Shown here: one piece after another, positions 3,994-57,194 of the stretch
Layout: the number at the start of each line of letters is the position of its first letter
Numbering within the stretch: the first letter of the stretch is position 1
From: Candidatus Levybacteria bacterium RIFCSPLOWO2_12_FULL_41_12
GTDB taxonomy: Bacteria; Patescibacteriota; Microgenomatia; Levybacterales; UBA12049
Length of the DNA: 64,000 nucleotides
Assembly: GCA_001784155.1 (NCBI GenBank)
Contig: MFPL01000007.1
Span: 10,101 to 74,100, forward strand
Reading direction: 5' to 3'
Made by a program: the position numbers and the translations under genes
The notes under the pieces: model-generated
What the model saw: only the letters and a program-made list of their open reading frames with translations
Databases searched by the model: none
Told to the model about the DNA's origin: nothing

Positions 3994-6476
3994 ACCTAAT
4001 TAAGAAACCCCTTGTCCTAATCTTCTTGGTTGGACTTTTAGCATGGCTTCCCACGTTATTTTTTTGGTTCTTTAAGGGCTATGAGGCGACGTGGTTATTA
4101 GGAGTTGGCGAGTATAATATCCCTAATTTATTAAAGGGCCATGCCTTCCTCTATTATATTGACTGGAAAATATTTGGATGGAATCCTTGGGGATGGTATC
4201 TCACTAGCATCGTTCTCCATCTTATAGCATCTTTCCTTTTGTTTAAATTTGTGTATTTAGTATCTAAGAATAAACTCCTTTCTCTTATAGCATCTATATT
4301 TTTTGTCGCTAATACCTCGTACAACGATGTCTTAACCTGGGGAAGTTTTAATTCATATTATCCACTCCTTTTAATATTGATGCTGGGATCTTTAATAGCA
4401 TTTGCTAAATATAGGGAAACTAAGAGGAAGATCTTTTTAACTATTTCAACAGTTTTTGCTTTCCTTGGATTCTACACTAGAGAAACGGGGTTAGTCATTG
4501 TGCCAATGCTTACAATATTTGATCTCATATTTTCTAATAATCTTAAAAGCAGACAAACAATAATTGATATTGTCAAAAGACAAACCCCTTTTTACATTGC
4601 TTTCTTAACCTTTTTCGTCATAAGGTCTATTTACGGTGGAACTCCGGGTGATAGCGCAGACAGTAATGTAAAATTACAAATGAGATTCGTTGAGGACGGA
4701 CTTTATTTAGAGTACGCGAAAGCTGTTATTCTAACAATGGGAAAGCTCATCCCTCCCCAAATCATACCTTATCCAGCGTTAAATTTAATTAGAGAGAGTT
4801 TTTCAAAGCTTGGACCCGAAAATACATACTTCTTCCCTGCTCTCGGATGGATAATTTTTGGCGGACTAGGGGCAGTAATGATAAAGTTGAGAAAGTCTAA
4901 CTACGCGAGAATTTTTCTATTTTTTCTATTATGGCTTGGATTATTTTCTGTATTCGTATCATTTGCAGTTCCTAATACTCCTGAAGTGTTAGCTAGAGCA
5001 TATGAGTACAATACGATGCGTTATCGATACTTTGCGTTTCTGGGAACCTCTATTCTCCTCGCGGTGATCTTAGCAGAGATATTCAAGAAGAGAGAAAGAG
5101 CGTTAGTTTTTGTAGCGTCAATTGTAGTAATTTTAAATCTGGTAATGTTATGGAGGATAGAGCAGAAAGTTTACGCGCTTTCCTATAAACCGGCAAAAGA
5201 ATTTAATATGAGATTGAGATCATTTTTTCCCACACTTCCCAAAGAAGCCGTTTTCTACTTATATCCACATTCCTCCGGTTTAGGCGACTATCTCCTGGAA
5301 TGGTACCTGATAAAGGGAGATTCCTATTTAAATCTGATTGGAGAACCATACAGGATAGAATCGCAGATAATTGCAGTGATTGATAAGGTAAAAAAAGGCA
5401 AAATAGAACTGTCTAACGTATTCTTTCTCGATTACAATAGCAGTGGTCTTTTAAATGAAACGGATAAGGTAAGAAGAGAACTTTTAAATCAGAAGAGCTA
5501 TCCGGTAAAACTTAATCGCGCAAGCGAAGCGCTTTATAAAAGCAATTCATTTGAAGGGCCAGTTGTCGACATTCCTTATAATATTGACCTTAGCCTGGGT
5601 ATTTCAGAAAACAGTCAATTTGTTGGAAAATCTTCCGATAGTCTAAAATTTAGAGCTTTGGTAGATTATTCCTCTGATAGGATTAATTACTTGAAAACTG
5701 TTTCCGTTTCTACCGCCTATACTATGTCACAGCGGGAGGGAGAACCGTTTTATCATGTTTTACCAGGGAATTTGATCGATGGCAATACGGGAAATAGATA
5801 CTCTTGGATTGCAGATGCATGGAACCCCTGGATACAGGTAGATCTGGGAGAACAGAGGGAGATTATTGCCGCTACGTGGGGATCAATAGATGGATCTACC
5901 AGAGTGCCAGCAACCTATTCGATATCTGTCTCAAAAGACGGAAGGGAATGGGTAAAAGCAAAAGATGTTAAAAATGCCAATTATGCTAAAAGCATTGATG
6001 TTTTTGATAAGCCGTATATAGCAAGGTTTGTTAGAATGGATATAAACACAACTTCCGGAGGAGACTTCGTAATGCTGGATGAGTTTGAAGTGATTTCCTA
6101 CTCAAGTAAAAATATTCTCTTATACTACAAAGATAGAGATAAACTATTGACTGACTACTACAACATGTTTGACTTTATGGGAGGTCAGGATGATTTATCT
6201 TATTTAAGAGACAAGGGACTAGATACTTATTGGGGCAAGTTGTCCTGGGAGACAAATAAGACAGCGCTGGGGGAAAATGGTCAAGTTTTATATTTTCAGT
6301 ATAATATTAATAATTCATTCCAACAAATAACCTTAGATCTCAATGAAGGAGAAATCTATTCCGGAAGCGGTAATTTTCTTAAAAAATATGTGAAATCAGT
6401 AGTAATAGATTTTGGACGAACCCCTTTTAATTTCTCATTGGATTCTTTACAATTTATACCTAGATTTAAGTTATGA
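3990..6476 (+). CDS. Polytopic GT-C-like membrane glycosyltransferase fused to a C-terminal F5/8 type C (discoidin/CBM32-like) domain
   Basis: About 400 aa of repeated hydrophobic helices (PMT/ArnT/AftD-like). Then an extracytoplasmic ~430 aa region containing NLIDGNTGNRYSWIADAWNPWIQVDLGEQREI..TWGSIDGSTRVPATYSISVSKDGREW, a discoidin signature. Confidence 0.6.
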   Translation: MNLIKKPLVLIFLVGLLAWLPTLFFWFFKGYEATWLLGVGEYNIPNLLKGHAFLYYIDWKIFGWNPWGWYLTSIVLHLIASFLLFKFVYLVSKNKLLSLIASIFFVANTSYNDVLTWGSFNSYYPLLLILMLGSLIAFAKYRETKRKIFLTISTVFAFLGFYTRETGLVIVPMLTIFDLIFSNNLKSRQTIIDIVKRQTPFYIAFLTFFVIRSIYGGTPGDSADSNVKLQMRFVEDGLYLEYAKAVILTMGKLIPPQIIPYPALNLIRESFSKLGPENTYFFPALGWIIFGGLGAVMIKLRKSNYARIFLFFLLWLGLFSVFVSFAVPNTPEVLARAYEYNTMRYRYFAFLGTSILLAVILAEIFKKRERALVFVASIVVILNLVMLWRIEQKVYALSYKPAKEFNMRLRSFFPTLPKEAVFYLYPHSSGLGDYLLEWYLIKGDSYLNLIGEPYRIESQIIAVIDKVKKGKIELSNVFFLDYNSSGLLNETDKVRRELLNQKSYPVKLNRASEALYKSNSFEGPVVDIPYNIDLSLGISENSQFVGKSSDSLKFRALVDYSSDRINYLKTVSVSTAYTMSQREGEPFYHVLPGNLIDGNTGNRYSWIADAWNPWIQVDLGEQREIIAATWGSIDGSTRVPATYSISVSKDGREWVKAKDVKNANYAKSIDVFDKPYIARFVRMDINTTSGGDFVMLDEFEVISYSSKNILLYYKDRDKLLTDYYNMFDFMGGQDDLSYLRDKGLDTYWGKLSWETNKTALGENGQVLYFQYNINNSFQQITLDLNEGEIYSGSGNFLKKYVKSVVIDFGRTPFNFSLDSLQFIPRFKL

Positions 6477-7447
6477 AATCAAAATTCTGGAAAAGTAAAA
6501 AAGTTCTAGTTACAGGTGGGGCAGGTTTTATAGGAAGTCACGTTGTTGAAAAGTTAGTTGCAAGAGAGGCAGTGGTTTCGGTTTTGGATAATTTGCAAAA
6601 CGGCTCGTTTGAGAATCTGGAAAATGTAAAAAGTAATTACAGTTTCATAGAGGGAGACTGTACCGATTCTGAGGTCGCAGGGAAAGCGTGTAGGGGACAG
6701 GATATTGTAATGAACTTGGCAGCTAAAGTTGGAGGAATTGAATACAACAGGACTCACCAGGCGACAATGTTAAGGGATAATTTACTCATCGGAACAGTAG
6801 TTTTGGAAGCTGCTCGTAAGAATAACGTTGAGAGGTTTCTCGTCATATCCTCTGCATGTGTATATCCAAGGGAATGTTCTTTTCCCACTCCTGAATCGGA
6901 AGGTTTTCTAGACGAACCTGAGCCCACCAATGGAGGTTACGGATGGGCCAAGAGAATGTCTGAGAAGTTGGGGATGTATTACGCTGAGGAATTTGGGATG
7001 AAGGTGGGAATTGTGAGGCCATACAACTGCTATGGTCCTAGAGATCATCTTGATCCTGAAATGTCTCATGTTATCCCGGCTTTGATAAAAAGAGTTTTTG
7101 ATGGGGAGGATCCTATAAAGGTATGGGGTTCAGGAAAACAAACAAGAGCATTTCTGTATGTAAATGATTTAGCAGAGGGAATGATCCAGGCAATAGAAAA
7201 ATATCCCGTGCCCGATCCAGTAAATCTCGGCACTGATGAGGAGATTTCAATAAAGGAGCTTATAAAAAAGATATTGGATATATCCGGAATTAATGCTAAA
7301 ATTGAGTTTGACTTATCAAAGCCGGACGGCAGTCCCAGAAGAAACAGTGACAATAGTAAGGCAGAAGAAAAGCTGGGATTTCAAGCTAAAACCAATATAG
7401 ACCAGGGTTTAAAAGAGACGATAGAGTGGTATAGAAATTATCAATAA
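6473..7447 (+). CDS. fcl: GDP-L-fucose synthase (GDP-4-keto-6-deoxy-D-mannose 3,5-epimerase/4-reductase)
   Basis: Block-by-block match to Fcl/WcaG as I recall it: AAKVGGI..N, SSACVYP, EPTNGGYGWAK, YNCYGPRDH..PE.SHVIPALIKR, VWGSGKQTRAFLYVNDLA, NLGTD.EISIKEL, FDLSKPDGSPRR. Confidence 0.75.
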   Translation: MKSKFWKSKKVLVTGGAGFIGSHVVEKLVAREAVVSVLDNLQNGSFENLENVKSNYSFIEGDCTDSEVAGKACRGQDIVMNLAAKVGGIEYNRTHQATMLRDNLLIGTVVLEAARKNNVERFLVISSACVYPRECSFPTPESEGFLDEPEPTNGGYGWAKRMSEKLGMYYAEEFGMKVGIVRPYNCYGPRDHLDPEMSHVIPALIKRVFDGEDPIKVWGSGKQTRAFLYVNDLAEGMIQAIEKYPVPDPVNLGTDEEISIKELIKKILDISGINAKIEFDLSKPDGSPRRNSDNSKAEEKLGFQAKTNIDQGLKETIEWYRNYQ

Positions 7448-13331: not shown

Positions 13332-13381
13332 TTCGCTACATTATAGTTTATATGGTAAAATCAAAGCAAATCATCATCCCG

Positions 13382-18265: not shown

Positions 18266-18332
18266 GCTAGGAAAATTTCCTGATAAGACGAGTTCAAAAA
18301 ACCAGAAGAAAGTCAAGATTTACAAATTACCG

Positions 18333-19274
18333 ATGAAAAATAAATATTTAGTAACAGGTGCAACAGGTTTCGTAGGTTCAAATATCGTAAGAGCTCTTAT
18401 AAAAAAAGGAGAGAAGGTGACTATTATTACAAGAGACAAAAAATTGAATTGGCGACTAAGGGACATAATAAAAGAATTTGATGTACACCAATTAGACTTG
18501 GTTATAGACGATCTGGTTCCGTCTTTGAAAAAGATAAGACCTGACTATATTTTTCATCTCGCCGCGTATGGTGTTTTACCAAACGAGAAAAATACAAAGA
18601 AAATGATAGACGTAAATCTAAAAGGAGCTGTAAATCTCATAAATGCTGCTTCGAAAAATCCGTTCAAACTATTTGTAAATACTGGGACTTCTGTAGAGTA
18701 TGGGGTAAAAAACAGAAAAATGAGAGAAACTGATGTTTTAACTCCTATCAATGACTATGGAGTTACAAAAGCTGCGGCGACACTTTATGGTCAGAGAATG
18801 GGCATTAAGGAAGGATTGCCGATTGTTAATTTTCGCTTATTCACCCCGTTTGGAAAATATGAAGACAAGACTCGGTTAGTCCCATCAGTGATTCTTTCCG
18901 CTTTGAGAAATGAACCAATACGGGTTTCAGTGCCAACAACTGTCAGGGATTTTGTATTCATAGAAGATGTTGTTAATGCTTACTTAAGGGTGACAAAGCT
19001 TTCTTTTGAACCTGGAGAAATAGTTAATATTGGATCAGGAAAACAACATTCTATAGAACAGATTGTTAGTTTGATTCTGAAGATTACGAAAAGCTATTCG
19101 GAAGTTGAATGGGGAAGTGTTAAAAAGCAAGATAGGTTTATAGAACCAGAGAAATGGGAGGCTGATATTTCAAGAGCTTGGCAAATTCTAAAATGGGAAC
19201 CAAAATACTCCATCGAGCAGGGTCTAGAAAAAACAATTAAATGGTATTCTAAAAATCAAAAATTATATGAATAA
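18333..19274 (+). CDS. NAD(P)-dependent sugar 4-reductase/epimerase (SDR)
   Basis: YLVTGATGFVGSNIV. YGVTKAAA catalytic YxxxK. Paralogous to 12378..13331. Confidence 0.7.
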   Translation: MKNKYLVTGATGFVGSNIVRALIKKGEKVTIITRDKKLNWRLRDIIKEFDVHQLDLVIDDLVPSLKKIRPDYIFHLAAYGVLPNEKNTKKMIDVNLKGAVNLINAASKNPFKLFVNTGTSVEYGVKNRKMRETDVLTPINDYGVTKAAATLYGQRMGIKEGLPIVNFRLFTPFGKYEDKTRLVPSVILSALRNEPIRVSVPTTVRDFVFIEDVVNAYLRVTKLSFEPGEIVNIGSGKQHSIEQIVSLILKITKSYSEVEWGSVKKQDRFIEPEKWEADISRAWQILKWEPKYSIEQGLEKTIKWYSKNQKLYE

Positions 19275-20852: not shown

Positions 20853-22277
20853 TTAGTTGAATTTTCTTAAAACATTTTTTCCTACTCTTCTGGCATTAGC
20901 CATTATTGTTAGGGTCGGAGATTTCGCGGGAAGTGCTTTCCATGTCGAGGAATCGCCACTGTATATTCTATTGGTTTGATGTAATTTCCCATTCTTATCC
21001 ACTGATAATAATGTAGGTACTTCTCTAAAGGGGACTCCTCCAGCGTAATGGACCGTAACGTAATCACTAACCGTTTTTAAAGGAAGTAATCCCAATGACC
21101 GCAATTGTCGCGAGATTTTATTAACCTCATTCCTATGTATTTCTAATTCCTTACGATTCTCCTTATATGATATCTCTAGAACATCTTCATCTCCTTTTTT
21201 CAGTAATCTACAAAATTTATTTTTTGATTCGAATACTGGAAATCTAATATCAGCTATCACTAGCGATGAAATAATAAATGACAATAGCATTGAGGCAATA
21301 ACCTTTGGTAGGGGAATATATTTGAGTGATTTATGTAGCACTTCGGTGTTGAACCTGTAAAGTTGGACAAAAAAAGCTACTAATCCATGATAGGTTTCGT
21401 CACTTAAAATGGCCAACTGGCCGAAATTACTTTTTTTAGAATTAGTTTTTTTTGTTAAAGTTCTAAAATTTAGGCATGCAGTCAAAAAATGGGCTTTTGT
21501 TAAGAATGTTGTTCTGTAGTCGAATAATCCTAAGCTTCTAAGTAAAATTCTCGTGGTATTAATTGAGCCAGCTGCTAGAATTAAATAATTTGCTCGATTG
21601 GTGGACATCACTGAGTTATCAATTGAAAAGCTTTGAATTTCTACATATTCAATTTTGTCCTTAACAGTATAGACTAGCTGATTTGGAATATAGGTAAAGT
21701 TTTTAAACCGTTTTAAGTCTTCTATGCTTGAGCTTGCACGATATGATATTGCGGTCGGTAGTTGATATACCGTATTTTTTAAGTTGGCCTTATTTTTAGC
21801 GGATTGCAAAATTAATCTTCCATGAGTATCAAGAGGGATTTTTAGCTTAAGATTTATAAGTTTTGCCACTTCTTGATATTCCTGCTGGATTATATCAGCT
21901 GGTAACCCAATTTTTTCAAGTTCTTCTTTTGAAAAAAAATCACAAATCCCATCCCAAATTTCGGATAGCCCACCCTTAGCTAGGCTTTGAATAATTTCAA
22001 TATCGCTTTTAATTTTTAAGAGTTGATAGGTTTTGTAAAAAACGTAACTGCTTTTTCTAAGTAAGTCATAGGCGTGACCCGCAGTAGAAGAATCAGTCTC
22101 CGAAAAATTAACCGGTTTTGAAGTCCGTTTCTTACTGTCTAATCCGCCGTCAATTATTGCGACCTGTAATCCTGCTTCGGTTAATGGGTATGCAGCATGT
22201 ACTCCTGCTGGTCCGGATCCGACTATCACAACATCAAATTGAGTATGCGAGCGATATTTATAAACTTTTTTCGTCAT
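20853..22277 (-). CDS. GMC-family FAD-dependent oxidoreductase (sugar oxidase/dehydrogenase-like)
   Basis: N-terminal DVVIVGSGPAGVHAAYPLTEAGLQVAIIDGG (FAD Rossmann). C-terminal GMC block HYAGGVPF...IYSGDSSTW....SPTLTIMANARRVGKNV. Confidence 0.65.
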   Translation of the reverse strand: MTKKVYKYRSHTQFDVVIVGSGPAGVHAAYPLTEAGLQVAIIDGGLDSKKRTSKPVNFSETDSSTAGHAYDLLRKSSYVFYKTYQLLKIKSDIEIIQSLAKGGLSEIWDGICDFFSKEELEKIGLPADIIQQEYQEVAKLINLKLKIPLDTHGRLILQSAKNKANLKNTVYQLPTAISYRASSSIEDLKRFKNFTYIPNQLVYTVKDKIEYVEIQSFSIDNSVMSTNRANYLILAAGSINTTRILLRSLGLFDYRTTFLTKAHFLTACLNFRTLTKKTNSKKSNFGQLAILSDETYHGLVAFFVQLYRFNTEVLHKSLKYIPLPKVIASMLLSFIISSLVIADIRFPVFESKNKFCRLLKKGDEDVLEISYKENRKELEIHRNEVNKISRQLRSLGLLPLKTVSDYVTVHYAGGVPFREVPTLLSVDKNGKLHQTNRIYSGDSSTWKALPAKSPTLTIMANARRVGKNVLRKFN

Positions 22278-22419: not shown

Positions 22420-23247
22420 ATGAAATATAAGCCCCTAATATCTGTTGTCATGCCTGCCCATAACGCTGTTAAAGATATAAACACTGCGGTGGAAAGCGTA
22501 TTGAATCAAACTTTTAAAAAATTCGAACTAATTATAGTTAACGATGCCTCAACTGATAATACTTATTCAAAACTTAAAGCATTATCGAGAAAAGATCCTA
22601 GGATAAGAATCATAAGCAACAAAAAAAGACTCGACATCGCAGGCACTCTGAATAAAGGTATTGCAGCTGCGCGCGCAGACATAATAGCTCGAATGGATGC
22701 GGACGATATATCAATGCCCAATAGATTCGAGCTTCAATATAAGCTTATTAATTCCGCCAAAAATATAGCTGCGGTTGGGGCAAATATTATAATTATGGAT
22801 ACGAGAGAGAAGGATATCGCCACACGCATTTATCCGGAAACATCGAGAGAGTTAAAGAGATGCTTGTTTAAGTACAGTCCTTTCGCACATCCAGTTGTGA
22901 TGTTTCGCAAGAAAATGGTTGAAGAAGTGGGTGGGTATAATCCAAAATATTCACCAACCGAGGATCTTGATTTGTGGTTTCGCCTGGGAGTGAAATACGA
23001 ATTTAAAAGTGTTCCCAAATTGCTCTTGAGGTATAGATTGAATGAAAAGTCTAGCAGCCATAAGGAGATTAAGGAGCTAGAGATATTAGTATTTAAAATT
23101 CGCCTAGATGCTATAATCAAATACGGTTACAGGCCGAGCTTATTTGATGCAATTTATAACATCTTTCAATTTTTAACTTTATGGATTACGCCAGCTAGAT
23201 ACAGAATTAAGATCTACAATCTGCTCAGAAATAATAATATAATTTAG
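22420..23247 (+). CDS. GT2 (GT-A) glycosyltransferase
   Basis: LISVVMPAHNAVKDINTAVESVLNQTFKKFELIIVNDASTDNT...MDADD (DxD). Confidence 0.8.
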   Translation: MKYKPLISVVMPAHNAVKDINTAVESVLNQTFKKFELIIVNDASTDNTYSKLKALSRKDPRIRIISNKKRLDIAGTLNKGIAAARADIIARMDADDISMPNRFELQYKLINSAKNIAAVGANIIIMDTREKDIATRIYPETSRELKRCLFKYSPFAHPVVMFRKKMVEEVGGYNPKYSPTEDLDLWFRLGVKYEFKSVPKLLLRYRLNEKSSSHKEIKELEILVFKIRLDAIIKYGYRPSLFDAIYNIFQFLTLWITPARYRIKIYNLLRNNNII

Positions 23248-23266: not shown

Positions 23267-24295
23267 ATGAAAAAATATGTAGGCATTTTCCCTTACAATG
23301 ATCACAGGTACTTATTGAATGCAGCGTTTAATAAAAATCTAAACGGTCTTGAGACTCCTATCTTCGTGACACTAAAAAAGTCTTTAAAACAGGTAAATAT
23401 AGAAGTAAATACATATGACATAGTGACAAAAGAAGAACTTTATACGTATGTATATTTTGATTTACCAAATCTTTGGAATATCAAAGCATGGGTAAAGATA
23501 ATCTCAAACAAAAACAAAAATATCCTGATCTGCAATGAGCCTCCTATTGTAATACCATTTAATTATTGGAAAATATTTCATACATTCTTTACAAAAGTTT
23601 ATACATGGAATGATAGCTTGGTAGACAACAAAAAATATTTTAAAATACTTTTGCCCAAAACAAGCTTAGGTCTTAACATCAAACCAAAAAAATTTAAAGA
23701 GAGGAAGTTTTTAGTTCTTATAAATAAAAACATACTGCCTTTTTACCCATTCAAAATTATCTTAAAGTTCGGAAAAGAGCTGTATACGGAGAGAATAAGA
23801 GCTATCGAATTTTTTGAGAAGACCATTCCAAAAAAGTTTTATCTTTACGGGCGAGATTGGAACAAACCCAAAAAGCATAATTTAACTGAGAGAATTATTG
23901 GTCCAAAGAAGTACTTGACCTACAAAGGTGAGGTCGACGATAAGATAGAATTATTATCAAGCTTTAAATACTCTATTTGCTTCGAGAACTTAACTGATAC
24001 CACAGGGTTTATTACCGAGAAAATATTTGATTGTCTAAAAGCTAGATGCGTCCCCGTCTATTGGGGTGCTACGGATATAGAAAATTATATTCCGAGGGAG
24101 TGCTTTATTGATTTTAGGCAATTCAAGGACTATGATGAGCTTCTAAAATTTTTAAATTCAATTAGCGAACAGAAGTATGCCAAGTATATAAAAAGCATTG
24201 AGAAATTGTTGTCTGATAAAAAATTTATAAACTTATGGTTTGAAGAAGCTTTTGCAGACTTTTTCATAAAGGATATTTTGGAAATAAAAAAATGA
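23267..24295 (+). CDS. GT10-family alpha-1,3/4-fucosyltransferase-like glycosyltransferase
   Basis: YKFSICFENLTDTGFITEKIFDCLKARCVPVYWG closely resembles the GT10 acceptor/GDP-Fuc motif block of Helicobacter FucT (YKFNLCFENS..GYVTEKI.D......P.YWG). Confidence 0.7.
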   Translation: MKKYVGIFPYNDHRYLLNAAFNKNLNGLETPIFVTLKKSLKQVNIEVNTYDIVTKEELYTYVYFDLPNLWNIKAWVKIISNKNKNILICNEPPIVIPFNYWKIFHTFFTKVYTWNDSLVDNKKYFKILLPKTSLGLNIKPKKFKERKFLVLINKNILPFYPFKIILKFGKELYTERIRAIEFFEKTIPKKFYLYGRDWNKPKKHNLTERIIGPKKYLTYKGEVDDKIELLSSFKYSICFENLTDTTGFITEKIFDCLKARCVPVYWGATDIENYIPRECFIDFRQFKDYDELLKFLNSISEQKYAKYIKSIEKLLSDKKFINLWFEEAFADFFIKDILEIKK

Positions 24296-25146
24296 TAAAA
24301 AATAATCTACCTTTAAGCCTGGAGTTAAAGGCAGCGGAAACAAGAGAAGAAATTTTAGAAATGATAGTAAGTGCCCGTGGAACCCACATTGCGAGTGCGT
24401 TTTCAATAGTAGATTTGGTGGTTTATTTATACAATCATGTTTTAAGAATAAATCCCAAAAAACCGAATGATCCTAAAAGAGATAAGTTTGTCTTAAGTAA
24501 AGGACATGGATGCGCAGCTTTGTATGTTGTTTTGGCAAATCTTGGCTTTTTTCCAAAGAGTGAGCTTGGGAAATACTGCACGAGAGAGGGTATTTTGGGT
24601 GGACACCCCGATAGCACAAGAATACCGGGGGTAGAAACCTCGACAGGTTCTTTGGGTCATGGTTTTCCTGTGGCCGTAGGATTTGCGTTGGCCAGTAAGA
24701 TTAACAAAAGTAATTCTAAGGTTTATTGTATAGTCGGTGATGGTGAATGCAATGAAGGGTCGGTTTGGGAAGCGGCACAGGTAGCTCCGCACCATAAGTT
24801 AGATAATCTAACTGTAATAGTTGATGACAACAAACTTATGATCTCAGGTTTCGCTAAGGATATTCTAAACCCTTTATCTTTAGCGGATAAATTCAGGATA
24901 TTTGGTTGGAATGTTATTGAAATCAATGGTCACAATTTTAAGGAAATAATAACTGCATTTAATGCCAAAACGAAAAATTCTAAGCCTACTGCCATAATCG
25001 CAAATACAATTAAAGGCAAAGGAGTGTCTTTTATGGAAAATGAAAAAGAATGGTACAGTAGACTTCCCAACGAAGAAGAGCTTAAGCTCGCGTTGGATGA
25101 GTTAGATACAAAAATCAAAAAGCTTAAGGGGAGGCTTAAGATATGA
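24292..25146 (+). CDS. Transketolase N-terminal-section subunit (TPP-binding)
   Basis: SKGHGCAALYVVLANLGFF, GHPD....GVETSTGSLGHGFPVAVGFA, VGDGECNEGSVWEA. Confidence 0.8.
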   Translation: MIKNNLPLSLELKAAETREEILEMIVSARGTHIASAFSIVDLVVYLYNHVLRINPKKPNDPKRDKFVLSKGHGCAALYVVLANLGFFPKSELGKYCTREGILGGHPDSTRIPGVETSTGSLGHGFPVAVGFALASKINKSNSKVYCIVGDGECNEGSVWEAAQVAPHHKLDNLTVIVDDNKLMISGFAKDILNPLSLADKFRIFGWNVIEINGHNFKEIITAFNAKTKNSKPTAIIANTIKGKGVSFMENEKEWYSRLPNEEELKLALDELDTKIKKLKGRLKI

Positions 25147-26093
25147 GAGATTCTTTCATAAGCTCGATATACAAAGTAACAAAAAAGGATAAAAATGTTT
25201 TATGTATTGTAGGAGATATTGGAGCATTTCTTCTAAGGAATTATATTAAAGATTTTCCAAACAATTATTTTAATTTGGGAGTCGCAGAGGCAAATATGGT
25301 CGGGGTTGCATCGGGACTTGCGATGTCTGGGAAAATTCCATTCGTTTACACCATTACCCCTTTTATTACGGCAAGGCCATACGAGCAAATTAAAGTAGAT
25401 GTATGCTATAACAACGCGAATGTAAAGCTTGTGGGTGTGGGGAGCGGTGCATCTTATGGGACGATGGGGTCAACCCACCATTCATTAGACGATTTAGCTC
25501 TAATGAGTACACTGCCCAATATGACGGTCATTTCTCCATCGGATCCTCTGGAGGTAGAAGAAGCAGTATTTGCCGCGGCAAAACACGTGGGACCCGTGTA
25601 TATAAGACTTACCTTAAAGTCTAAACCCTTAATTTATAAAAGGGAAGATTTTAAGATAGGAAAGGCAAGAGTAGTTAGAAACGGAAAAGATGTGGCAGTC
25701 ATTGCTACGGGGGATATGGTCGAAGTTGCCGTGGATGCTGCAAGCATCCTGGAAAAGGAAAATATAAGCTGTCAGATAATCAATATGCATACGATAAAGC
25801 CCATAGATGAACGACTTATTGGGGATTTGTCGAAAAAATATAAGGTAATAATTTCCATAGAAGAACATAGTGTTATGGGAGGGTTGGGCAGTGCAATATC
25901 TTCCGTTTTGGCACAAATTCCTGATAATAAAGCACTTTTTAAAGCAATGGGGTTTCGGGACGAGTTCGTGAAAATTTACGCTAGCGATAAACATGAGATA
26001 TTTAACGCTTATGGTTTATCGGAAAAACATTTAGCTAATGAAGTTCTCTCTTTGTACATGTATGCTAAGTCCAATAATACGAGAAGACATTAA
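25143..26093 (+). CDS. Transketolase C-terminal-section subunit (full length: Pyr and C-terminal domains)
   Basis: GVAEANMVGVASGLAMSGKIPFVYTITPFITARPYEQI. 316 aa with the C-terminal domain present. ATGA overlap with the N-subunit gene. Confidence 0.8.
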   Translation: MRDSFISSIYKVTKKDKNVLCIVGDIGAFLLRNYIKDFPNNYFNLGVAEANMVGVASGLAMSGKIPFVYTITPFITARPYEQIKVDVCYNNANVKLVGVGSGASYGTMGSTHHSLDDLALMSTLPNMTVISPSDPLEVEEAVFAAAKHVGPVYIRLTLKSKPLIYKREDFKIGKARVVRNGKDVAVIATGDMVEVAVDAASILEKENISCQIINMHTIKPIDERLIGDLSKKYKVIISIEEHSVMGGLGSAISSVLAQIPDNKALFKAMGFRDEFVKIYASDKHEIFNAYGLSEKHLANEVLSLYMYAKSNNTRRH

Positions 26094-27117
26094 AGACGTA
26101 GTTAATAGGCTGGGGAAAGATGCAGACCGCTTATCGGGTAAAACTGTTCTGATAACAGGAGCCTCAGGCTTAATTGGAGGATATTTAGTTGATACGCTAG
26201 TCTATCTTAATGAGAATAGATTGCTCAAGTCCTGTAAGGCAATAGCTCTTCAAAAAAGTAAAGTTAAAAAAAATAGTAGGTTGGGACATTTATTGAATAA
26301 CCGAAATGTTAAACTTGTTTCCCACGACGCGTCCGCTCCTTATAAAAGTAATCAGAAGATAGATTACGTTATTCACGCTGCAGGAGTGTCAGCACCTGCA
26401 GCTTTTCTAAAAGACCCCTTGGGCACTATAGATGTAAATGTGTCTGGCGTTCGATGGATTCTAGAATATGCGAGGAAAAATGAAGTAAAAAGCATTCTTT
26501 ATATGAGTAGTGGCGAAATCTATGGAAATCCAACCCTGGAGAATATACCCACCCCTGAAACCTATAAAGGGAATGTATCTACCCTTGATCCGCGTGGATG
26601 CTATACCTCTTCAAAAAGACTGGCAGAAACCCTCTGCAGTATTTATTTCGAAAAATATAATGTACCTGTAAAAATTGCTCGTCCATTTATTGTCTATGGA
26701 CCCGGCCTTCGGTTTGACGACAAAAGGGTTATGGCAGAATTTATTAAAAACGGGTTGGAAGGTAAGCCAATAGAAATGTTAAACGCAGGACGGGATACTC
26801 GCTCATACTGCTATGTATCCGATGCAACAGTCGCATTTTTTAAAATTCTCCTCTCGTCTAAGGACGGAGAACCATTTAATGTGGCATCTGATTTGGAAGA
26901 GGTGAGTATAAAAGAATTAGCGGAATTGGTTCATAAAATTTGCAATATAAAAAAGCCAGTTAGGGTAAAAAAGAAAGGAGCGAATTTCTTAAAAGACGCT
27001 CCGAACAGAGTCTTTCCGGACATTACCAAGCTCAAAAAAACATTCGGATATGTCCCTAAGGTAGGGATAGAGAAAGGCCTCCGAAGGACAATTGAATGGA
27101 ACAGGTCTGTAATTTGA
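26038..27117 (+). CDS. NAD-dependent sugar epimerase/dehydratase (SDR)
   Basis: GKTVLITGASGLIGGYLV. YTSSKRLAE catalytic YxxxK. The true start is probably an internal Met, because the annotated ORF overlaps the upstream gene by 56 nt. Confidence 0.7.
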   Translation: MKFSLCTCMLSPIIREDIKDVVNRLGKDADRLSGKTVLITGASGLIGGYLVDTLVYLNENRLLKSCKAIALQKSKVKKNSRLGHLLNNRNVKLVSHDASAPYKSNQKIDYVIHAAGVSAPAAFLKDPLGTIDVNVSGVRWILEYARKNEVKSILYMSSGEIYGNPTLENIPTPETYKGNVSTLDPRGCYTSSKRLAETLCSIYFEKYNVPVKIARPFIVYGPGLRFDDKRVMAEFIKNGLEGKPIEMLNAGRDTRSYCYVSDATVAFFKILLSSKDGEPFNVASDLEEVSIKELAELVHKICNIKKPVRVKKKGANFLKDAPNRVFPDITKLKKTFGYVPKVGIEKGLRRTIEWNRSVI

Positions 27118-27121
27118 AAAT

Positions 27122-27841
27122 ATGGATCTAAAACGCTTTGTACTCAAATATCTCGCTCCCCCTACAGAAACAGCGAGAAACGAATGGGTGGTTAAGAAGA
27201 TTGCTAAAATCCCCAAAGGTAAAAGCATTCTTGATGTTGGAGCTGGAGAAATGCCTTATAAGACATACTGCAGGCATCTCAAATATAAAAGTCAAGACTT
27301 TGGGAAGTACACAGGCGAAAATACAAAAAGTGGTATAAAAAGCGGAAAGTACGATACTAAAAGTGTGGATATTATTTCCGATATTACTTCTATACCAGTC
27401 AGAAATAAATCATTTGACTATGTGCTCTGCACAGAGGTTTTCGAGCACATACCCGATCCTCTTCAGGCATTAAAAGAAATAAGCAGGATAAATAAATCGA
27501 CACTTATACTGACTGCTCCGTTTGCCTCCTTAACACATTTTTATCCTTATTTTTTTTACACAGGGTTTTCAGAACAGTTCTATAGAACAAATCTTCCAAG
27601 ATACGGATATAAAATCAAGGAAATATATGCGTACGGAAATTACTTTGACTTATTGGGCATGGAGCTTTTGAGACTACCTCTCATCATCTTTGACTACAAC
27701 AAGATATTTTTGATTTGTATTCTTCCCTTTTTTACGTTGACATTACCAGTGCTTATGGCCTTGAGGATTCTGGGAAAACTTTATCCTCAGTCAAATAACA
27801 TTTTTTGCTTTGGGATATGTGTTTTAGCAAAAAAATACTAA
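27122..27841 (+). CDS. Class I SAM-dependent methyltransferase with hydrophobic C-terminus
   Basis: ILDVGAGEMPY motif I. VLCTEVFEHIPDP. C-terminal membrane-like helices. Confidence 0.65.
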   Translation: MDLKRFVLKYLAPPTETARNEWVVKKIAKIPKGKSILDVGAGEMPYKTYCRHLKYKSQDFGKYTGENTKSGIKSGKYDTKSVDIISDITSIPVRNKSFDYVLCTEVFEHIPDPLQALKEISRINKSTLILTAPFASLTHFYPYFFYTGFSEQFYRTNLPRYGYKIKEIYAYGNYFDLLGMELLRLPLIIFDYNKIFLICILPFFTLTLPVLMALRILGKLYPQSNNIFCFGICVLAKKY

Positions 27842-29073: not shown

Positions 29074-30012
29074 ATGTTTAAAAAAGAATACGTTTCCTTT
29101 CTTTGCTGCCCCGACTGTAGAGCAAGTCTCTCTATCAAAGATAAGCAATTTACCTGCAGTATTTGTAAAAACGAATACCCCTTAATAGGAAGTATTCCGG
29201 TTTTGGTGTCAAGCTCTATGGCAAAAGACGTAAAGCTATCCCGGGAAAAATGGGACGCTGAATATAAAAAAACAGTAGATAAAGATAAGGCAAGAAGTCT
29301 TAAAAAAAACTTCAAAAACATATATCTTTCGTCAACCATGAGTTATATAGAAAAATTATTTGACTCTTATAAAAACAAGAAATACCTGGAGATAGGATGT
29401 GGCCCGTTCTTTATAGGTCAAGAAATTGCCACAAAAGGAGCTTTTGTAGTGGGAATAGACTATTCAATGAACGCATTGAAGCTCGCAAAATTTTATCTTG
29501 ATGAAGAGGGAATAGATAATTATTTGCTTGTGTGTGGAGATATTGCTAAGATGCCTTTTAAGGACAATGTCTTCGATATCCTTTATGGTGGAGGAGTAAT
29601 CGAACATTTTAAAGATACGGTGGGAGTAGTAAAAGAAAATCACAGAGTATTAAAGAAGGGTGGCGTTGCTTTTAATTCCGTTCCTAAGCTTAATCTGGGT
29701 TCACTAACTTATAGACAAATGTGGGGGAATATTCCCAGCGCACCCGTGCTTAAACAAATTGCCGAATTTGTTCACATCAAGATTCTTAAGGGAAAAAGGA
29801 TGATATATGGATATGAATACTCCTTCACCGATTCGCAACTTAGAAAGATTTTCGCTAAGGCAGGGTTTCGGAGGGAAAACATAGATGTGGGTCGCTACGA
29901 GGTTCCACTTCTTTTAGAATATATAAAGAACAAATCTGCGAGAAAGATTGCAATGGCGGTAGCACAAAGTAATTTATTTTGGCCTGCCACTTATATTCTG
30001 TCTCGAAAATAA
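29074..30012 (+). CDS. SAM-dependent methyltransferase with N-terminal Trm112-like zinc-ribbon
   Basis: CCPDC...C.IC four-Cys ribbon at the N-terminus, then YLEIGCGPFFIG motif I. Possible extended -10 (TGcTATAAT, about 29045..29053) upstream. Confidence 0.65.
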   Translation: MFKKEYVSFLCCPDCRASLSIKDKQFTCSICKNEYPLIGSIPVLVSSSMAKDVKLSREKWDAEYKKTVDKDKARSLKKNFKNIYLSSTMSYIEKLFDSYKNKKYLEIGCGPFFIGQEIATKGAFVVGIDYSMNALKLAKFYLDEEGIDNYLLVCGDIAKMPFKDNVFDILYGGGVIEHFKDTVGVVKENHRVLKKGGVAFNSVPKLNLGSLTYRQMWGNIPSAPVLKQIAEFVHIKILKGKRMIYGYEYSFTDSQLRKIFAKAGFRRENIDVGRYEVPLLLEYIKNKSARKIAMAVAQSNLFWPATYILSRK

Positions 30013-30034
30013 CGGAGACTCGTGGTTTACTTTT

Positions 30035-32481: not shown

Positions 32482-32530
32482 CTTTGATGTTGAAATTTTT
32501 TCATAAAGTATATATAGTTTCGAGTATAAA

Positions 32531-54356: not shown

Positions 54357-55445
54357 ATGAAGGTGGCTTTAGTTTATGATCGTGTTAACAAATGGGGAGG
54401 CGCAGAAAGAGTTCTCTTGGCGCTTCATAAAATGTTCCCCAGGGCTCCGCTTTTTACCTCTGTTTATAACGAGGAAACCGCAGGGTGGGCCGGGATTTTT
54501 GATATAAAAACCTCTTTTCTTCAGTCCTTTCCCCTAGCGCGCAGAAAGCATGAATTATACGCTACTTTTATGCCCCTGGCTTTTGAGTCTTTAAGCTTTG
54601 ATGGATACGATTTGGTAATTTCGCTTTCAAGCGAAGCATCCAAGGGAATAATTACAAAGCCTGGGACTTGCCATATATGCTACTGTCTCACCCCGACTAG
54701 ATATCTTTGGAGCGGATACGGAGACTATTTTAAAAACCCGCTCCTTAGGTTTCTCTCCAAGCCAGCAGTTTCTTACTTAAAGAGCTGGGATTTAGTGGCC
54801 TCTCAAAGGCCTGACTACTACGCCTCAATTTCAAAAGAAGTTGCAGGTAGGGTTAGGAAATATTATGGCAGAGACTCCATTATTATTTATCCGCCTGTTG
54901 CAGGTATTGGAAGAAATGTAAATTCAAAAAAGGAAGATTTCTATCTCCTAGTAAGCAGACCCGTTCCCTATAAGAGAATAGATATTGCTATTGAGGTATT
55001 TAAGAATAATGGGAAAAAATTAAAAATAGTTGGAGCAGGTTTGGGCGAGCGGTTTTTAAAAGGGTCGTTACCAAACAATATAGAAGTTTTAGGAGATGTT
55101 TCAGATGAAGCGCTTTTTGATCTGTATCAACGGGCAAATGCTTTAATTTTTCCCGGAAGGGAAGATTTTGGATTAGTTATGGCAGAGGCCCAGTCTTTTG
55201 GCACTCCGGTAGTGGCTTTTGGAGGAGGGGGTGCGCTTGAGATCATTGAGGAGGGAAGAACTGGAGAGTTTTTTAACAAACACGACAGCTCATCGCTTCA
55301 GGCTACGTTGGAAATGTTTGACAAGAAAAGCTATAATTCAGAATATATAAAGGAAAGAGCTTTAAGGTTTGGTCCCCAAAGGTTTGAGAAAGAGTTCTTA
55401 AATTTTGTGGAAAATAGTTTGAGTGCGTATTCAGAAAAAATATGA
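54357..55445 (+). CDS. GT4 (GT-B) glycosyltransferase
   Basis: MKVALVYDRVNKWGGAERVLLAL N-terminus. Start taken at the internal ATG; the track ORF extends 45 nt further, into the upstream gene. C-terminal GREDFGLVMAEAQSFGTPVVAFGGGGALEII. Confidence 0.75.
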   Translation: MKVALVYDRVNKWGGAERVLLALHKMFPRAPLFTSVYNEETAGWAGIFDIKTSFLQSFPLARRKHELYATFMPLAFESLSFDGYDLVISLSSEASKGIITKPGTCHICYCLTPTRYLWSGYGDYFKNPLLRFLSKPAVSYLKSWDLVASQRPDYYASISKEVAGRVRKYYGRDSIIIYPPVAGIGRNVNSKKEDFYLLVSRPVPYKRIDIAIEVFKNNGKKLKIVGAGLGERFLKGSLPNNIEVLGDVSDEALFDLYQRANALIFPGREDFGLVMAEAQSFGTPVVAFGGGGALEIIEEGRTGEFFNKHDSSSLQATLEMFDKKSYNSEYIKERALRFGPQRFEKEFLNFVENSLSAYSEKI

Positions 55446-56524
55446 AGATCGTAATTTTTGCAGGAGGAGTAGGAACAAGGCTTTGGCCGCTTTCAAGGAA
55501 AAGTACCCCCAAGCAGTTTGAGAAAATAGTAGGAGATAAGTCTACCCTTCAGTTAGCGGTTGACAGACTCAAGCCCAGCATTAAGCCTCGGGACATATAC
55601 ATAGCTACAGGGAAAAAGTACGAAAAAATAGTTCGCGCTCATCTTCCCCAGATTCCTGCGAAAAACTTTATTTTCGAGCCAGAAATGAGAGACGTTGGTC
55701 CTGCGGTAGGAGTTGCTATGGGAATTGTCGGAAAAGACAATCCCAACTCTCCTGTTGCGATTATTTGGAGCGACCATTTTGTCAAGAAGGAAAGAAGATT
55801 TCGGGAGGTTCTGAGCTTTGCAGAAGAACTGGTAATAAAAGACAAAAATTCGCTAGTTTTTATGGGACAGCGCGCCCGTTTTGCAAATCAGAATTTAGGG
55901 TGGATAGAGTTTGCAGAAGAAATTGACGATATTCACGGTACAAAAGTTTTCAGATTCAAGAAGCTTATATACAGGCCAAGTCTGGAGGATGCTGAAAGAT
56001 TTTTAGAAAGTCAGACATATGCCTGGAACCCTGGGTATTTCGTTACAACTCCGCAGTTTCTCCTGTCACAATACGAAAAATTCACTCCCGTACTTTGGAA
56101 AGGAATAATGCAAATCCAAGAAGCAGTAGGGCAGGGAAACTACGAAAAGGTTTTAAAAGAAGTTTATCCGAAATTCGAAAAAATAAGTTTTGACAATGCG
56201 ATTCTTGAGAAAATGGATCCTAGTCAAGTGTCGGTTATTGCTGCGGATTTGGGGTGGAGCGATGTAGGGGCATGGGAAGCTTTGAAGGAAGCTCTTCAGG
56301 TTTCTGAAAAAGAAAACGTTACGAGGGGGAAAGTTCTTCTTGAAGACTCATCTGACAATTTGGTTTTCAATTACACAGACCAGCTGGTGGTAGGCCTAGA
56401 CCTTGAGGAGACAATCGTTATAAATACAGATGACGTTATACTGGTTTGTCCTAAAAAGTCTGTACCAAAGATTAAAAAGTTGGTAGAGAGCCTAACTGGT
56501 ACTCCCCTCGAACATTTAACCTGA
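55442..56524 (+). CDS. manC: Mannose-1-phosphate guanylyltransferase (nucleotidyltransferase domain only)
   Basis: MKIVIFAGGVGTRLWPLSRKSTPKQF typical ManC/CpsB N-terminus. 360 aa, no isomerase domain. Confidence 0.7.
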   Translation: MKIVIFAGGVGTRLWPLSRKSTPKQFEKIVGDKSTLQLAVDRLKPSIKPRDIYIATGKKYEKIVRAHLPQIPAKNFIFEPEMRDVGPAVGVAMGIVGKDNPNSPVAIIWSDHFVKKERRFREVLSFAEELVIKDKNSLVFMGQRARFANQNLGWIEFAEEIDDIHGTKVFRFKKLIYRPSLEDAERFLESQTYAWNPGYFVTTPQFLLSQYEKFTPVLWKGIMQIQEAVGQGNYEKVLKEVYPKFEKISFDNAILEKMDPSQVSVIAADLGWSDVGAWEALKEALQVSEKENVTRGKVLLEDSSDNLVFNYTDQLVVGLDLEETIVINTDDVILVCPKKSVPKIKKLVESLTGTPLEHLT

Positions 56525-56528
56525 AGCT

Positions 56529-57194
56529 ATGCCGTACGTTGAGATAAAAAAAAGCAGGGCTTACGAGTGGATCAAGCGAATTTTGGATATTTCTCTTTCC
56601 GCTTTTCTTTTGCTGCTTTTTCTTCCAATTGTCTTGTGCGTTGCCATAGCTATAAAAATTGATTCAAAGGGCCCGATTCTCGCTGATACTCCCGAGAGAG
56701 TTGGAAAAAACGGAAGTCTTTTTAAAATGTATAAATTCCGCTCGATGGTAGAGAATGCTCATGAGATTCTTCGTGAAAACCCGAAATTTGCGACACTTTA
56801 CAGCGAATATAAAAGGGGAAGTTATAAGCTTAAAGATGATCCAAGGATAACCTGGATGGGGCATTTCATTAGAAAGCACTCGCTTGACGAGGTCCCGCAG
56901 CTCCTGAATATCCTAAAAGGTGAAATGAGTCTCGTTGGACCCAGAGCCTATTATCCTGATGAACTGCGAGAACAGCAAAAGAAATATCCTAACACTAGGG
57001 ACGCTGTAAAAATAGTTTTATCAGTAAGGCCTGGTCTTACAGGGTATTGGCAGGTTTCAGGAAGATCTGAGATCAATTTTGATAAAAGGATTGAAATGGA
57101 CGCTACATATGTAAGGAAGAGATCAATTCTGTACGATCTTCTTATAATCCTTAAAACCCCTTGGGCCATGATCTCAGGTAAAGGCGCCCTCTAG
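56529..57194 (+). CDS. Polyprenyl-phosphate sugar-1-phosphate transferase (PglC/WbaP C-terminal-domain type 'bacterial sugar transferase')
   Basis: One N-terminal TM helix. KGPILADTPERVGKNGSLFKMYKFRSM....DEVPQLLNILKGEMSLVGPRA. Small monotopic PglC-like form. Confidence 0.85.
   Translation: MPYVEIKKSRAYEWIKRILDISLSAFLLLLFLPIVLCVAIAIKIDSKGPILADTPERVGKNGSLFKMYKFRSMVENAHEILRENPKFATLYSEYKRGSYKLKDDPRITWMGHFIRKHSLDEVPQLLNILKGEMSLVGPRAYYPDELREQQKKYPNTRDAVKIVLSVRPGLTGYWQVSGRSEINFDKRIEMDATYVRKRSILYDLLIILKTPWAMISGKGAL

Follow-up and report, generated by a model that had tools for sequence, protein, structure and literature searches.

A GT10-family glycosyltransferase gene in a Candidatus Levybacteria surface-glycan cluster, linked to a divergent split transketolase and not to gmd

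The glycosyltransferases (GTs) of CAZy family GT10 that have been characterised are inverting, GDP-β-L-fucose-dependent α1,3/4-fucosyltransferases, and that of Helicobacter pylori (FutA/FucT, hereafter HpFucT) carries C-terminal heptad repeats and a membrane-anchor helix. In the canonical pathway, exemplified by the colanic acid cluster of Escherichia coli, the donor is provided by ManC/CpsB, by the GDP-mannose 4,6-dehydratase Gmd and by the GDP-L-fucose synthase Fcl/WcaG. Here we describe a GT10 gene located at positions 23267–24295 of a stretch of 64,000 nucleotides, called the window below, from Candidatus Levybacteria bacterium RIFCSPLOWO2_12_FULL_41_12 (contig MFPL01000007.1). It opens a translationally coupled cassette, GT10-TktN-TktC-SDR-methyltransferase, in which TktN and TktC are the two subunits of a split transketolase (TK) and SDR stands for a short-chain dehydrogenase/reductase. 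In the clade to which this GT10 protein belongs, it is the linkage with the Tkt pair, not that with gmd, that is conserved.

It has been proposed that split-gene TKs pass a hydroxyacetyl group onto a keto sugar when miharamycin and amipurimycin are made (PMC12247030, citing Krug et al. 2024). Thirteen further TKs of this kind have been predicted from gene clusters, all of them in Streptomycetes, and a 2025 review states that in vitro characterisation is lacking for every one (PMC12247030). TK-catalysed ketol transfer onto keto sugars is a proposal at this stage, for which the only known candidates lie in Streptomyces antibiotic clusters, and NDP-4-keto-deoxy sugars are branched by other thiamine diphosphate (ThDP) enzymes, of the YerE and E1 alpha/beta types (PMC12247030). 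In Clostridium scindens, the desAB genes encode a divergent split TK in a cortisol-induced operon lying apart from the canonical TK genes, and the function proposed for the enzyme is the cleavage, through transketolation, of the ketol side chain of steroids (PMC3735941). Our literature searches yielded no paper pairing a fucosyltransferase with the Candidate Phyla Radiation (CPR) and, on transketolases in O-antigen or capsule clusters, nothing directly relevant besides DesAB and the ThDP review. As far as these searches show, the exchange, at the level of a clade, of a gmd linkage for a linkage with a non-canonical split TK has not been described previously.

The earlier note on this DNA had likened the product of the gene to the Helicobacter Lewis-antigen fucosyltransferases and had made this likeness depend on a match with a GT10 profile. 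The likeness was borne out. The Pfam model PF00852 (Glyco_transf_10) scores 55.4 bits, the gathering cutoff being 23.9 (E 8.2e-15), and aligns residues 223–309 with profile positions 48–137 of 182; a phmmer search of PDB sequences gave five matches, every one a GT10 fucosyltransferase, headed by the H. pylori α1,3-fucosyltransferase 2nzw (E 1.9e-13, down to 6.3e-18 with a 43-sequence family profile), and the HpFucT proteins are the closest characterised relatives in terms of both sequence and fold. The motif quoted in the note is real, and its FEN...TEK pattern occurs only once in the six-frame translation of the window, although one T had been dropped from it: the true reading is FENLTDTTGFITEKIFDCLKARCVPVYWG. 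In the PDB alignment, N240, E249, and K250 of HpFucT correspond to N241, E251, and K252, and its Y246 to F248. E91, E240, E251, and K252 do not vary among the 43 homologues, at least 90% of which share N241. E91, which occurs in the context LICNEPP in the N-domain, could be the catalytic Glu of the protein. The catalytic base of HpFucT is the Glu residue E95; neither the sequence nor the profile alignments map E91 onto it.

The AlphaFold2 model of the protein (pLDDT 92.1, pTM 0.90) shows a two-domain GT-B fold whose nearest structures are GT10 enzymes: the nine top Foldseek matches in the PDB are all of this family (H. pylori FucT, 2nzx/2nzw/2nzy, and human FUT9) and are followed by generic GT-B enzymes, the TM-scores being modest (0.58). 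The N-domain is recognisable at the fold level only, since no N-terminal GT10 family of Pfam matches it at E <= 0.01 and the phmmer and profile alignments with PDB sequences span only residues ~203–313; nor does any NCBIfam model match the protein. More than 1,280 homologues were found, many of them 60–69% identical and some labelled "glycosyltransferase family 10" or "alpha(1,3/1,4) fucosyltransferase" in the public data, and a protein 100% identical is present in a Candidatus Levybacteria metagenome-assembled genome (MAG) from Rifle groundwater (CPR, Microgenomates). The Pfam score, the PDB sequence and profile matches, the fold neighbours, and the retention of the donor-site residues make it well supported that the gene encodes a GT-B glycosyltransferase of family GT10, which is probably cytoplasmic. 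The use of GDP-β-L-fucose and the formation of α1,3/4-fucosides would be expected of it from its family, but the gene neighbourhoods described below are a reason for caution.

The neighbourhoods of the GT10 relatives were scored by tblastn in four individual look-ups, at 80 species-representative genome loci, and at 80 metagenome loci (locus numbers below are those of this survey). Close orthologues, in which the GT10 proteins are at least 56% identical, are found at 19 loci, 16 of which are informative in that they include at least 3 kb of downstream sequence. A Tkt pair is present in all 16, downstream and on the same strand, as against 9 of the 136 loci of distant relatives (GT10 identity below 40%). 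A true gmd gene, looked for within 8–10 kb at the close loci, occurs at none of the 19 and at 30/136 of the distant ones, whereas Fcl-type SDR genes were detected at 12/19 and 37/136, respectively. After de-duplication, Fisher tests gave p = 3e-11 for the Tkt contrast and p = 0.04 for the gmd contrast, both figures being inflated because of the ancestry shared among the loci.

In the window, ATGA overlaps occur at the GT10/TktN and TktN/TktC junctions, and the TktC and SDR genes overlap as well. The Tkt pair lies no more than 50 nt from the GT10 gene at 11 close loci and some 3–4 kb away at the other 5, where a Gmd/RmlB-like 4,6-dehydratase and a PDH-E1 alpha/beta pair are inserted between them. 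The gene upstream may be a GT2, a GT4, or an SDR encoded on the other strand, whereas the GT10-Tkt junction is constant; the GT2 gene preceding the GT10 gene in the window, which is found again in L007 and is replaced by a GT4 gene at other loci, is outside the conserved core. The methyltransferase gene occupies the same position in L007, and methyltransferases also accompany the cassette in L016. In the latter locus, from a Nomurabacteria genome, the GT10 protein is 47% identical (PF00852, 63.3 bits) and the same kit is reordered as TktN-TktC-SDR-SDR-MT-like-MT-GT10 (MT, methyltransferase). The linkage recurs in a second GT10 clade, 45–47% identical, with another gene order.

The arrangement with the inserted genes constitutes an alternative cassette (L006/L011, L010, L013, and L100), lying about +0.7 to +10 kb from the GT10 gene. 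It begins with GT10-(acetyltransferase)-Gmd/RmlB-like 4,6-dehydratase-PDH-E1 alpha/beta pair and continues with TktN, TktC, a protein of ~312 aa, an Fcl-type SDR, and two aldo-keto reductases. The presence of two ThDP enzymes beside a 4,6-dehydratase makes it strongly resemble branched-chain deoxysugar pathways. A weakly methyltransferase-like protein of ~310 aa was found in L005, L098, L006, L010, L013, L100, L016, L018, and L066; it was considered as a universal member of the cassette and rejected, being absent from the window. Six MAGs bearing the title "uncultured Gammaproteobacteria bacterium" (L009, L010, L014, L017, L020, and L024) carry GT10 loci 62–66% identical along with the CPR-type cassette, and these titles look like taxonomic mislabels.

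In the PDB, TktN and TktC are matched best by the characterised split-chain TK of Carboxydothermus hydrogenoformans, the former by its N-terminal component 6yak (E 2.9e-76) and the latter by 6yaj (E 8e-56). In the alignment with E. coli TktA, the numbering of which is used here, the residues H26, H66, H100, D155, N185, E411, and H473 involved in ThDP binding and catalysis are all kept, while five others are replaced (S385→F, H461→G, D469→M, R520→L, and H261→Y). In the E. coli and human enzymes, the substrate phosphate and the acceptor C2-OH are bound by R358, S385, H461, D469, and R520. The H461→G replacement was found in all 14 GT10-linked Tkt pairs, and S385→F/Y, D469→M, and R520→L in the group to which that of the window belongs, whereas the C. 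hydrogenoformans TK used as a control keeps S/H/D/R at positions 385/461/469/520. Among the best 150 representative clusters of TktC relatives obtained in a full-library phmmer search (clustering at 50% identity), Gly occurs at position 461 in 102 and the canonical S-H-D-R pocket in 16, the latter validating the alignment. The fact that the sugar-phosphate pocket has been lost and the ThDP and catalytic residues have been kept suggests that the cassette TK is not a pentose-phosphate enzyme; a housekeeping role in this pathway was rejected since four pocket residues are replaced that the controls retain. Its residues place the enzyme in a large clade of uncharacterised split TKs, the pocket of which is predicted to be of a non-phosphate type.

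The proteins of this Gly461 family are likely to be annotated as plain transketolase subunits. A second, more degenerate ThDP module is present on the minus strand of the window at 11173–13331, consisting of an SDR gene (12378–13331) followed by two TK-like open reading frames (ORFs), one encoding 241 aa similar to Transketolase_N (11657–12385) and the other 174 aa with a Transket_pyr domain only and no C-terminal domain (11173–11700). The window thus holds two sets combining an SDR with split-TK-like genes.

The cassette SDR carries the sequence SSGEIYG, a T/S-x-E motif of the dehydratase/decarboxylase class. Its best PDB match is the human UDP-glucuronate decarboxylase UXS1 (2b69, 155.8 bits, E 1.5e-44), and its best NCBIfam models are those of LegB and the dTDP-glucose 4,6-dehydratases (~110 bits, none above cutoff). 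Orthologues 68–72% identical occupy the same position in L007, L009, L093–L097, and L099. In the alternative arrangement, a hexose 4,6-dehydratase (181 bits with the gmd model and 172 bits with that of dTDP-glucose dehydratase) directly follows the GT10 gene. Since the position is filled by differing enzymes, what recurs looks like the role of a keto-sugar generator and not one orthologue.

The genes fcl (6473–7447) and manC (55442–56524) pointed out in the earlier note were recovered as ORFs at exactly these coordinates and resemble their families, both scoring below the equivalog cutoffs. The best model of the former is NF047922 (217.1 bits, cutoff 500), the next one being ~70 bits lower, and its identity to E. 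coli Fcl is 32% across the full length. In the Fcl family, S107, Y136, and K140 are catalytic and C109/H179 form the acid/base pair of the epimerase (E. coli numbering): all five residues are kept in this protein and in no other SDR of the window. Its SHVIPAL motif (7064–7084) is unique in the six-frame scan, and its best PDB matches are the GDP-L-fucose synthases 8du0/7ll6 (E 2e-55). Relatives of the same subtype, 40–44% identical, are found in L082, directly after a true Gmd, and in L084, together with a true gmd; the fact that the Fcl protein of L082 scores 291 bits and also fails the NF047922 cutoff indicates that this cutoff is strict. The ManC-like protein gives 221 bits with TIGR01479 (cutoff 373) over profile positions 3–346 of 467, that is, the guanylyltransferase part only; it is 28% identical to E. 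coli CpsB residues 9–355 and has no phosphomannose isomerase (PMI) domain.

No gmd gene was found in the window, as the earlier note had stated. In an NCBIfam equivalog scan of all seven SDR-type ORFs of the window, the best score with the Gmd model TIGR01472 was ~52 bits against a cutoff of 415; tblastn searches of the window with the Gmd proteins of E. coli and L082 returned generic SDRs only, at no more than 22–31% identity; and an NHESPRRG-type motif is absent from all six frames. A location of gmd just beyond the window was likewise rejected, as no candidate is present in the 9 kb upstream, which carry glycosyltransferases, a flippase, an RmlC-like gene, and an aminotransferase, or in the 10 kb downstream, which correspond to the dcw cell-wall cluster. 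The genome measures roughly 1 Mb, and the search for gmd covered ~83 kb of it.

The reading we favour, to which we give about an even chance of being right, is that the conserved cassette, with no canonical Gmd taking part, produces a modified L-sugar resembling fucose and transfers it, working alongside the Fcl-type SDR and the ManC-type enzyme. GDP-mannose would be made by the ManC-type guanylyltransferase, the family assignment of which is supported. A non-orthologous cassette SDR, distinct from canonical Gmd, would yield a 4-keto(-6-deoxy) sugar nucleotide, onto which, as a non-phosphorylated keto-sugar, the cassette TK might add (or from which it might remove) a two-carbon ketol unit, by analogy with the miharamycin/amipurimycin split TKs and DesAB. 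The Fcl-type SDR and the methyltransferase would then finish the L-configured fucose-like sugar, which the GT10 enzyme, judging from its family, would pass to the growing glycan. Of the two explanations offered in the earlier note for the missing gmd, a location outside the window and the substitution of a generic SDR, the second is therefore the one contained in the favoured reading. Because it is the Tkt/SDR/methyltransferase linkage and not that with gmd that is conserved, plain GDP-L-fucose becomes less certain as the donor, and in this clade the donor is probably a modified fucose-like L-sugar and not plain fucose. More specifically, and only tentatively, what the GT10 clade transfers might be a 6-deoxy-L-hexose that is C-branched or two carbons longer and perhaps O-methylated; a neofunctionalised split TK would form it from a GDP-4-keto sugar, a non-orthologous SDR standing in for Gmd. 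In this detailed form the proposal is rather unlikely.

Several points weigh against the production of a modified sugar by the cassette. The donor specificity of the GT10 protein is not readable from its sequence, and should the TK branch C4, it is not evident what a 4-reductase (Fcl type) would contribute to that pathway. R358, a phosphate-binding residue, is retained in TktC. The nearest relatives of the cassette SDR use UDP-glucuronate and not GDP-mannose, and the SDRs following the Tkt pair are not one orthologous family, those of L005, L008, and L098 being only 34–35% identical. The Fcl-type gene lies 16 kb away in the window and was undetected at 7/19 close loci. The close orthologues come from related Microgenomates and include near-duplicates (L006=L011, L094–L096), so that the linkage may partly be inherited synteny, the independence of the loci being overstated in the Fisher tests. 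Given the length of sequence inspected, the rest of the genome may include a canonical gmd or a housekeeping TK of the canonical kind. Lastly, L082 and L035 carry the Tkt pair together with true gmd+fcl beside the GT10 gene, and the TK could thus serve a different sugar of the same glycan.

These last two points keep alive the alternative that survives best, which is possible but on balance unlikely: the GT10 protein would be an ordinary fucosyltransferase, supplied with GDP-L-fucose by ManC, a Gmd encoded elsewhere, and the Fcl-type SDR, while the Tkt, SDR, and methyltransferase genes would serve another sugar and be its neighbours by ancestry. Every characterised GT10 enzyme uses GDP-fucose, and the donor-site residues are conserved here; the window encodes an Fcl-type enzyme whose catalytic residues are complete, and distant GT10 relatives often stand beside true gmd+fcl. 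What argues against this alternative is the distribution of the genes: gmd, which normally adjoins fcl (L026, L031, L034, and L082 are examples), is missing within 8–10 kb at all the close loci and present at 30 of the 136 distant loci; the GT10-Tkt junction, with its start/stop overlap, is maintained (16/16) while the upstream neighbours vary; and the linkage reappears in the 45–47% identical clade in a different gene order.

According to a second alternative, the cassette SDR might be a true UDP-glucuronate decarboxylase/UDP-4-keto-pentose synthase, the TK modifying a UDP-4-keto-pentose and the GT10 enzyme having switched to a UDP-linked donor derived from a pentose. The UXS1 structures are the best solved relatives of the SDR by a wide margin, and a UDP-glucose dehydrogenase gene lies 5 kb upstream of the cassette in L007. 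No such dehydrogenase gene was found in the window, however, and the idea of a UXS-like SDR fed by a local one was rejected on these grounds. In addition, the SDR scores below every NCBIfam cutoff (76 bits against 294 with the UDP-4-keto-pentose/UDP-xylose synthase model), it is only 34% identical in L005 and L008 and gives way to a Gmd/RmlB-like hexose 4,6-dehydratase in the other arrangement, and the GDP-site residues E251 and K252 of the GT10 proteins are invariant, all of which makes a UDP-pentose route improbable.

It is slightly more improbable still that the fcl-like gene encodes a GDP-mannose 3,5-epimerase (GME), in which case ManC and GME would provide GDP-L-galactose for the GT10 enzyme and Gmd would be unneeded. 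GME structures align with residues 3–321 of the protein (E 1e-43) and Fcl structures only from ~residue 75; the N-terminal nucleotide-binding segment differs from that of E. coli Fcl, its Rossmann sequence GGAGFIGSH...LDN looking like a tight NAD-binding site. The best model and the best PDB matches are nevertheless those of Fcl (217 bits; 8du0, E 2e-55), SHVIPAL is present, and GME uses a Cys/Lys pair where this protein has the acid/base pair C109/H179 of Fcl; this Cys/His pair and the association of the same subtype with true Gmd in L082 and L084 ruled out GME as the main reading of 6473–7447. That the motif is a coincidence in a GT-B enzyme of another family is hardly credible and was rejected on the Pfam, PDB sequence, profile, and fold evidence: although the Pfam and PDB sequence matches are limited to the C-domain (~222–312), with no N-domain or NCBIfam model, and generic GT-B enzymes come close behind in the Foldseek ranking (TM 0.58), the C-domain scores more than twice the Pfam cutoff, 5/5 PDB sequence matches and the nine best Foldseek matches are GT10 enzymes, the profile gives E 6e-18, and the labels of the public homologues say GT10.

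Table 1. Main features of the window (positions in nucleotides; ThDP, thiamine diphosphate; SDR, short-chain dehydrogenase/reductase; SAM, S-adenosylmethionine; PMI, phosphomannose isomerase)
Feature	Position	Strand	Evidence and remarks
GDP-L-fucose-synthase-type (Fcl/GMER-like) SDR	6473..7447	+	NF047922, identity to E. coli Fcl, catalytic residues
GT2 glycosyltransferase	22420..23247	+	PF00535, 119.5 bits; 19-nt gap to the GT10 gene
GT10-family GT-B glycosyltransferase	23267..24295	+	342 aa, ATG start; PF00852, PDB, fold
GT10 donor-binding motif FENLTDTTGFITEK	23981..24022	+	Aligned with H. pylori FucT FEN-TQGYGYVTEK
Split transketolase N-terminal (ThDP/PP-domain) subunit, TktN	24292..25146	+	PF00456, 153 bits
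Split transketolase C-terminal (Pyr + C domain) subunit, TktC	25143..26093	+	PF02779, PF02780
Extended SDR, dehydratase/decarboxylase class, UXS-like	26062..27117	+	Motif SSGEIYG; alternative start 26038
Class I SAM methyltransferase	27122..27841	+	PF08241, PF13489; last of the co-directional block
Mannose-1-phosphate guanylyltransferase-like (ManC N-terminal domain type, without PMI domain)	55442..56524	+	TIGR01479, PF00483, ManC_GMP_beta-helix
Initiating phosphoglycosyl transferase (Bac_transf)	56529..57194	+	PF02397, 204.5 bits; right end of the glycan supercluster

The surface-glycan supercluster surrounding the GT10 gene extends over ~57 kb (Table 1). To the right of the Bac_transf gene lie the housekeeping genes encoding RecO, GlyRS, IMPDH, and MsrA, followed by the dcw cluster. 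The G+C content is 0.33–0.39 in the supercluster and 0.40–0.43 in the housekeeping genes at the right end, from ~54 kb onwards, and the GC skew is positive almost throughout the window, which fits the location of nearly all the genes on the + strand.

Several other features of the window were recorded. Directly upstream of the GT2-GT10 block, on the minus strand, an ORF (20853–22277) encodes a 474-aa flavin adenine dinucleotide (FAD)-dependent oxidoreductase with a weak C-terminal similarity to GMC oxidoreductases; it could be a further sugar-oxidising (keto-forming) enzyme and is missing from the L007 version of the locus. A complete-looking CDP-hexose pathway, which could supply a second 6-deoxy-L-hexose, is encoded at 16010–19274; it comprises a glucose-1-phosphate cytidylyltransferase (260 bits, cutoff 300), an SDR similar to CDP-glucose 4,6-dehydratase (209 against 278 bits, SDK motif), an RmlC-type 3,5-epimerase (183 bits, above cutoff), and a further SDR. 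Two very large predicted membrane proteins of 828 and 887 aa (3990–6476 and 13316–15979) carry F5/8 type C (discoidin, galactose-binding-like) domains, one of these genes being located directly before the fcl-like gene, which it overlaps; a homologue is also found in L007. The genes at 29074–33220 encode a Trm112-like/methyltransferase fusion, a phosphodiesterase of the alkaline phosphatase superfamily (523 aa), a HAD-like hydrolase, and a protein similar to 3'-phosphoadenosine 5'-phosphosulfate (PAPS) reductase, and may add a non-carbohydrate substituent (of the phospho- or sulfo- type) to the glycan. A 23S rRNA-intervening-sequence protein, a bAvd-like four-helix-bundle ORF (42221–42595; PF05635, 131 bits), is located between an isolated N-terminal GT4 fragment (41663–42187) and a full-length GT4 gene (42621–43745), and may have entered as an insertion, breaking up or duplicating a glycosyltransferase gene.

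The cassette, which is compact (four to six genes) and widely conserved, would provide a system for testing the transfer of ketol units onto keto sugars by TKs and would bear on the question as to whether GT10 enzymes accept donors besides GDP-fucose. Automatic "transketolase" labels attached to more than 100 pocket-less clusters would also distort the metabolic reconstructions of CPR bacteria, implying that the pentose-phosphate pathway is complete. These bacteria depend on cell-cell contact with their hosts, and to our knowledge almost nothing is known about their surface glycans. Should the branched-sugar reading be true, the system would be the first in which a transketolase builds a branched sugar of a cell-surface glycan and the first in which a GT10 enzyme takes a donor other than fucose, and it would represent a surface-glycan trait that defines Microgenomates along with other CPR bacteria; should the ordinary reading be right, this would be one more environmental GT10 fucosyltransferase, with its gmd encoded elsewhere. 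The idea of host mimicry by Lewis antigens put forward in the earlier note was not sustained, since the gene belongs to a groundwater CPR bacterium, nothing ties it to an animal host, and GT10 genes beside gmd/fcl are common in environmental bacteria.

Among the systems described, H. pylori FutA/FucT (2nzw, 5zoi) shares with the GT10 protein the Pfam C-terminal domain, the two-domain GT-B fold, and the N/E/K residues of the donor site; the invariant Glu in the N-domain of the latter (E91) could be the counterpart of its catalytic base. It differs in that the identity over the fold alignment is only ~16–18%, the N-domains not being alignable in sequence; the GT10 protein has 342 aa as against 371–420 aa in the deposited HpFucT constructs and apparently lacks the heptad repeats and the membrane-anchor helix; and the organism is not host-associated, its gene going with a split TK/SDR cassette and not depending on gmd/fcl. 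With the canonical ManC/CpsB-Gmd-Fcl/WcaG pathway, the window has in common a ManC-type and an Fcl-type protein, the latter with a complete catalytic set, within one glycan supercluster. Unlike the colanic acid cluster, it contains no Gmd, no ManB, and no PMI domain, and its fcl-like gene adjoins no dehydratase gene.

On the transketolase side, comparison with the split TKs of the miharamycin and amipurimycin clusters, made from their description, shows the same separate N and C genes, an adjoining oxidoreductase that could form the keto sugar, a sugar-tailoring cluster, and a dedicated transferase. The clustering by which such split TKs are recognised is seen in the window, where TktN and TktC lie between the GT10 gene and those of a dehydratase-class SDR and a methyltransferase, with overlapping junctions; the Streptomyces-type systems differ in belonging to actinomycete secondary-metabolite clusters and acting on nucleoside or antibiotic sugars, whereas the present genes neighbour a GT10 gene within a locus for the cell-surface glycans of a CPR bacterium. 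The steroid-17,20-desmolase DesAB is likewise a divergent split TK whose genes lie in an operon of their own, away from those of the housekeeping TKs, and the substrate proposed for it is non-phosphorylated, an α-hydroxy-ketone/tertiary carbinol, the reaction being the reverse of the addition of a ketol to a ketone; its steroid substrate, its catabolic role, and the lack of a glycan-type SDR/GT context set it apart. YerE (yersiniose) and the E1 alpha/beta-type enzymes (alphaKADH2) involve the same succession of a 4,6-dehydratase, a ThDP enzyme forming a C-C bond on a 4-keto sugar, a reductase, and a glycosyltransferase. They belong to the decarboxylase or E1 branches and not to the TKs, their donor is pyruvate or a 2-oxoacid and not a ketol, and the characterised cases concern CDP- and TDP-sugars; the alternative cassette (L006, L010, L013, and L100) itself holds an E1 alpha/beta pair and a 4,6-dehydratase, as in the E1-type systems.

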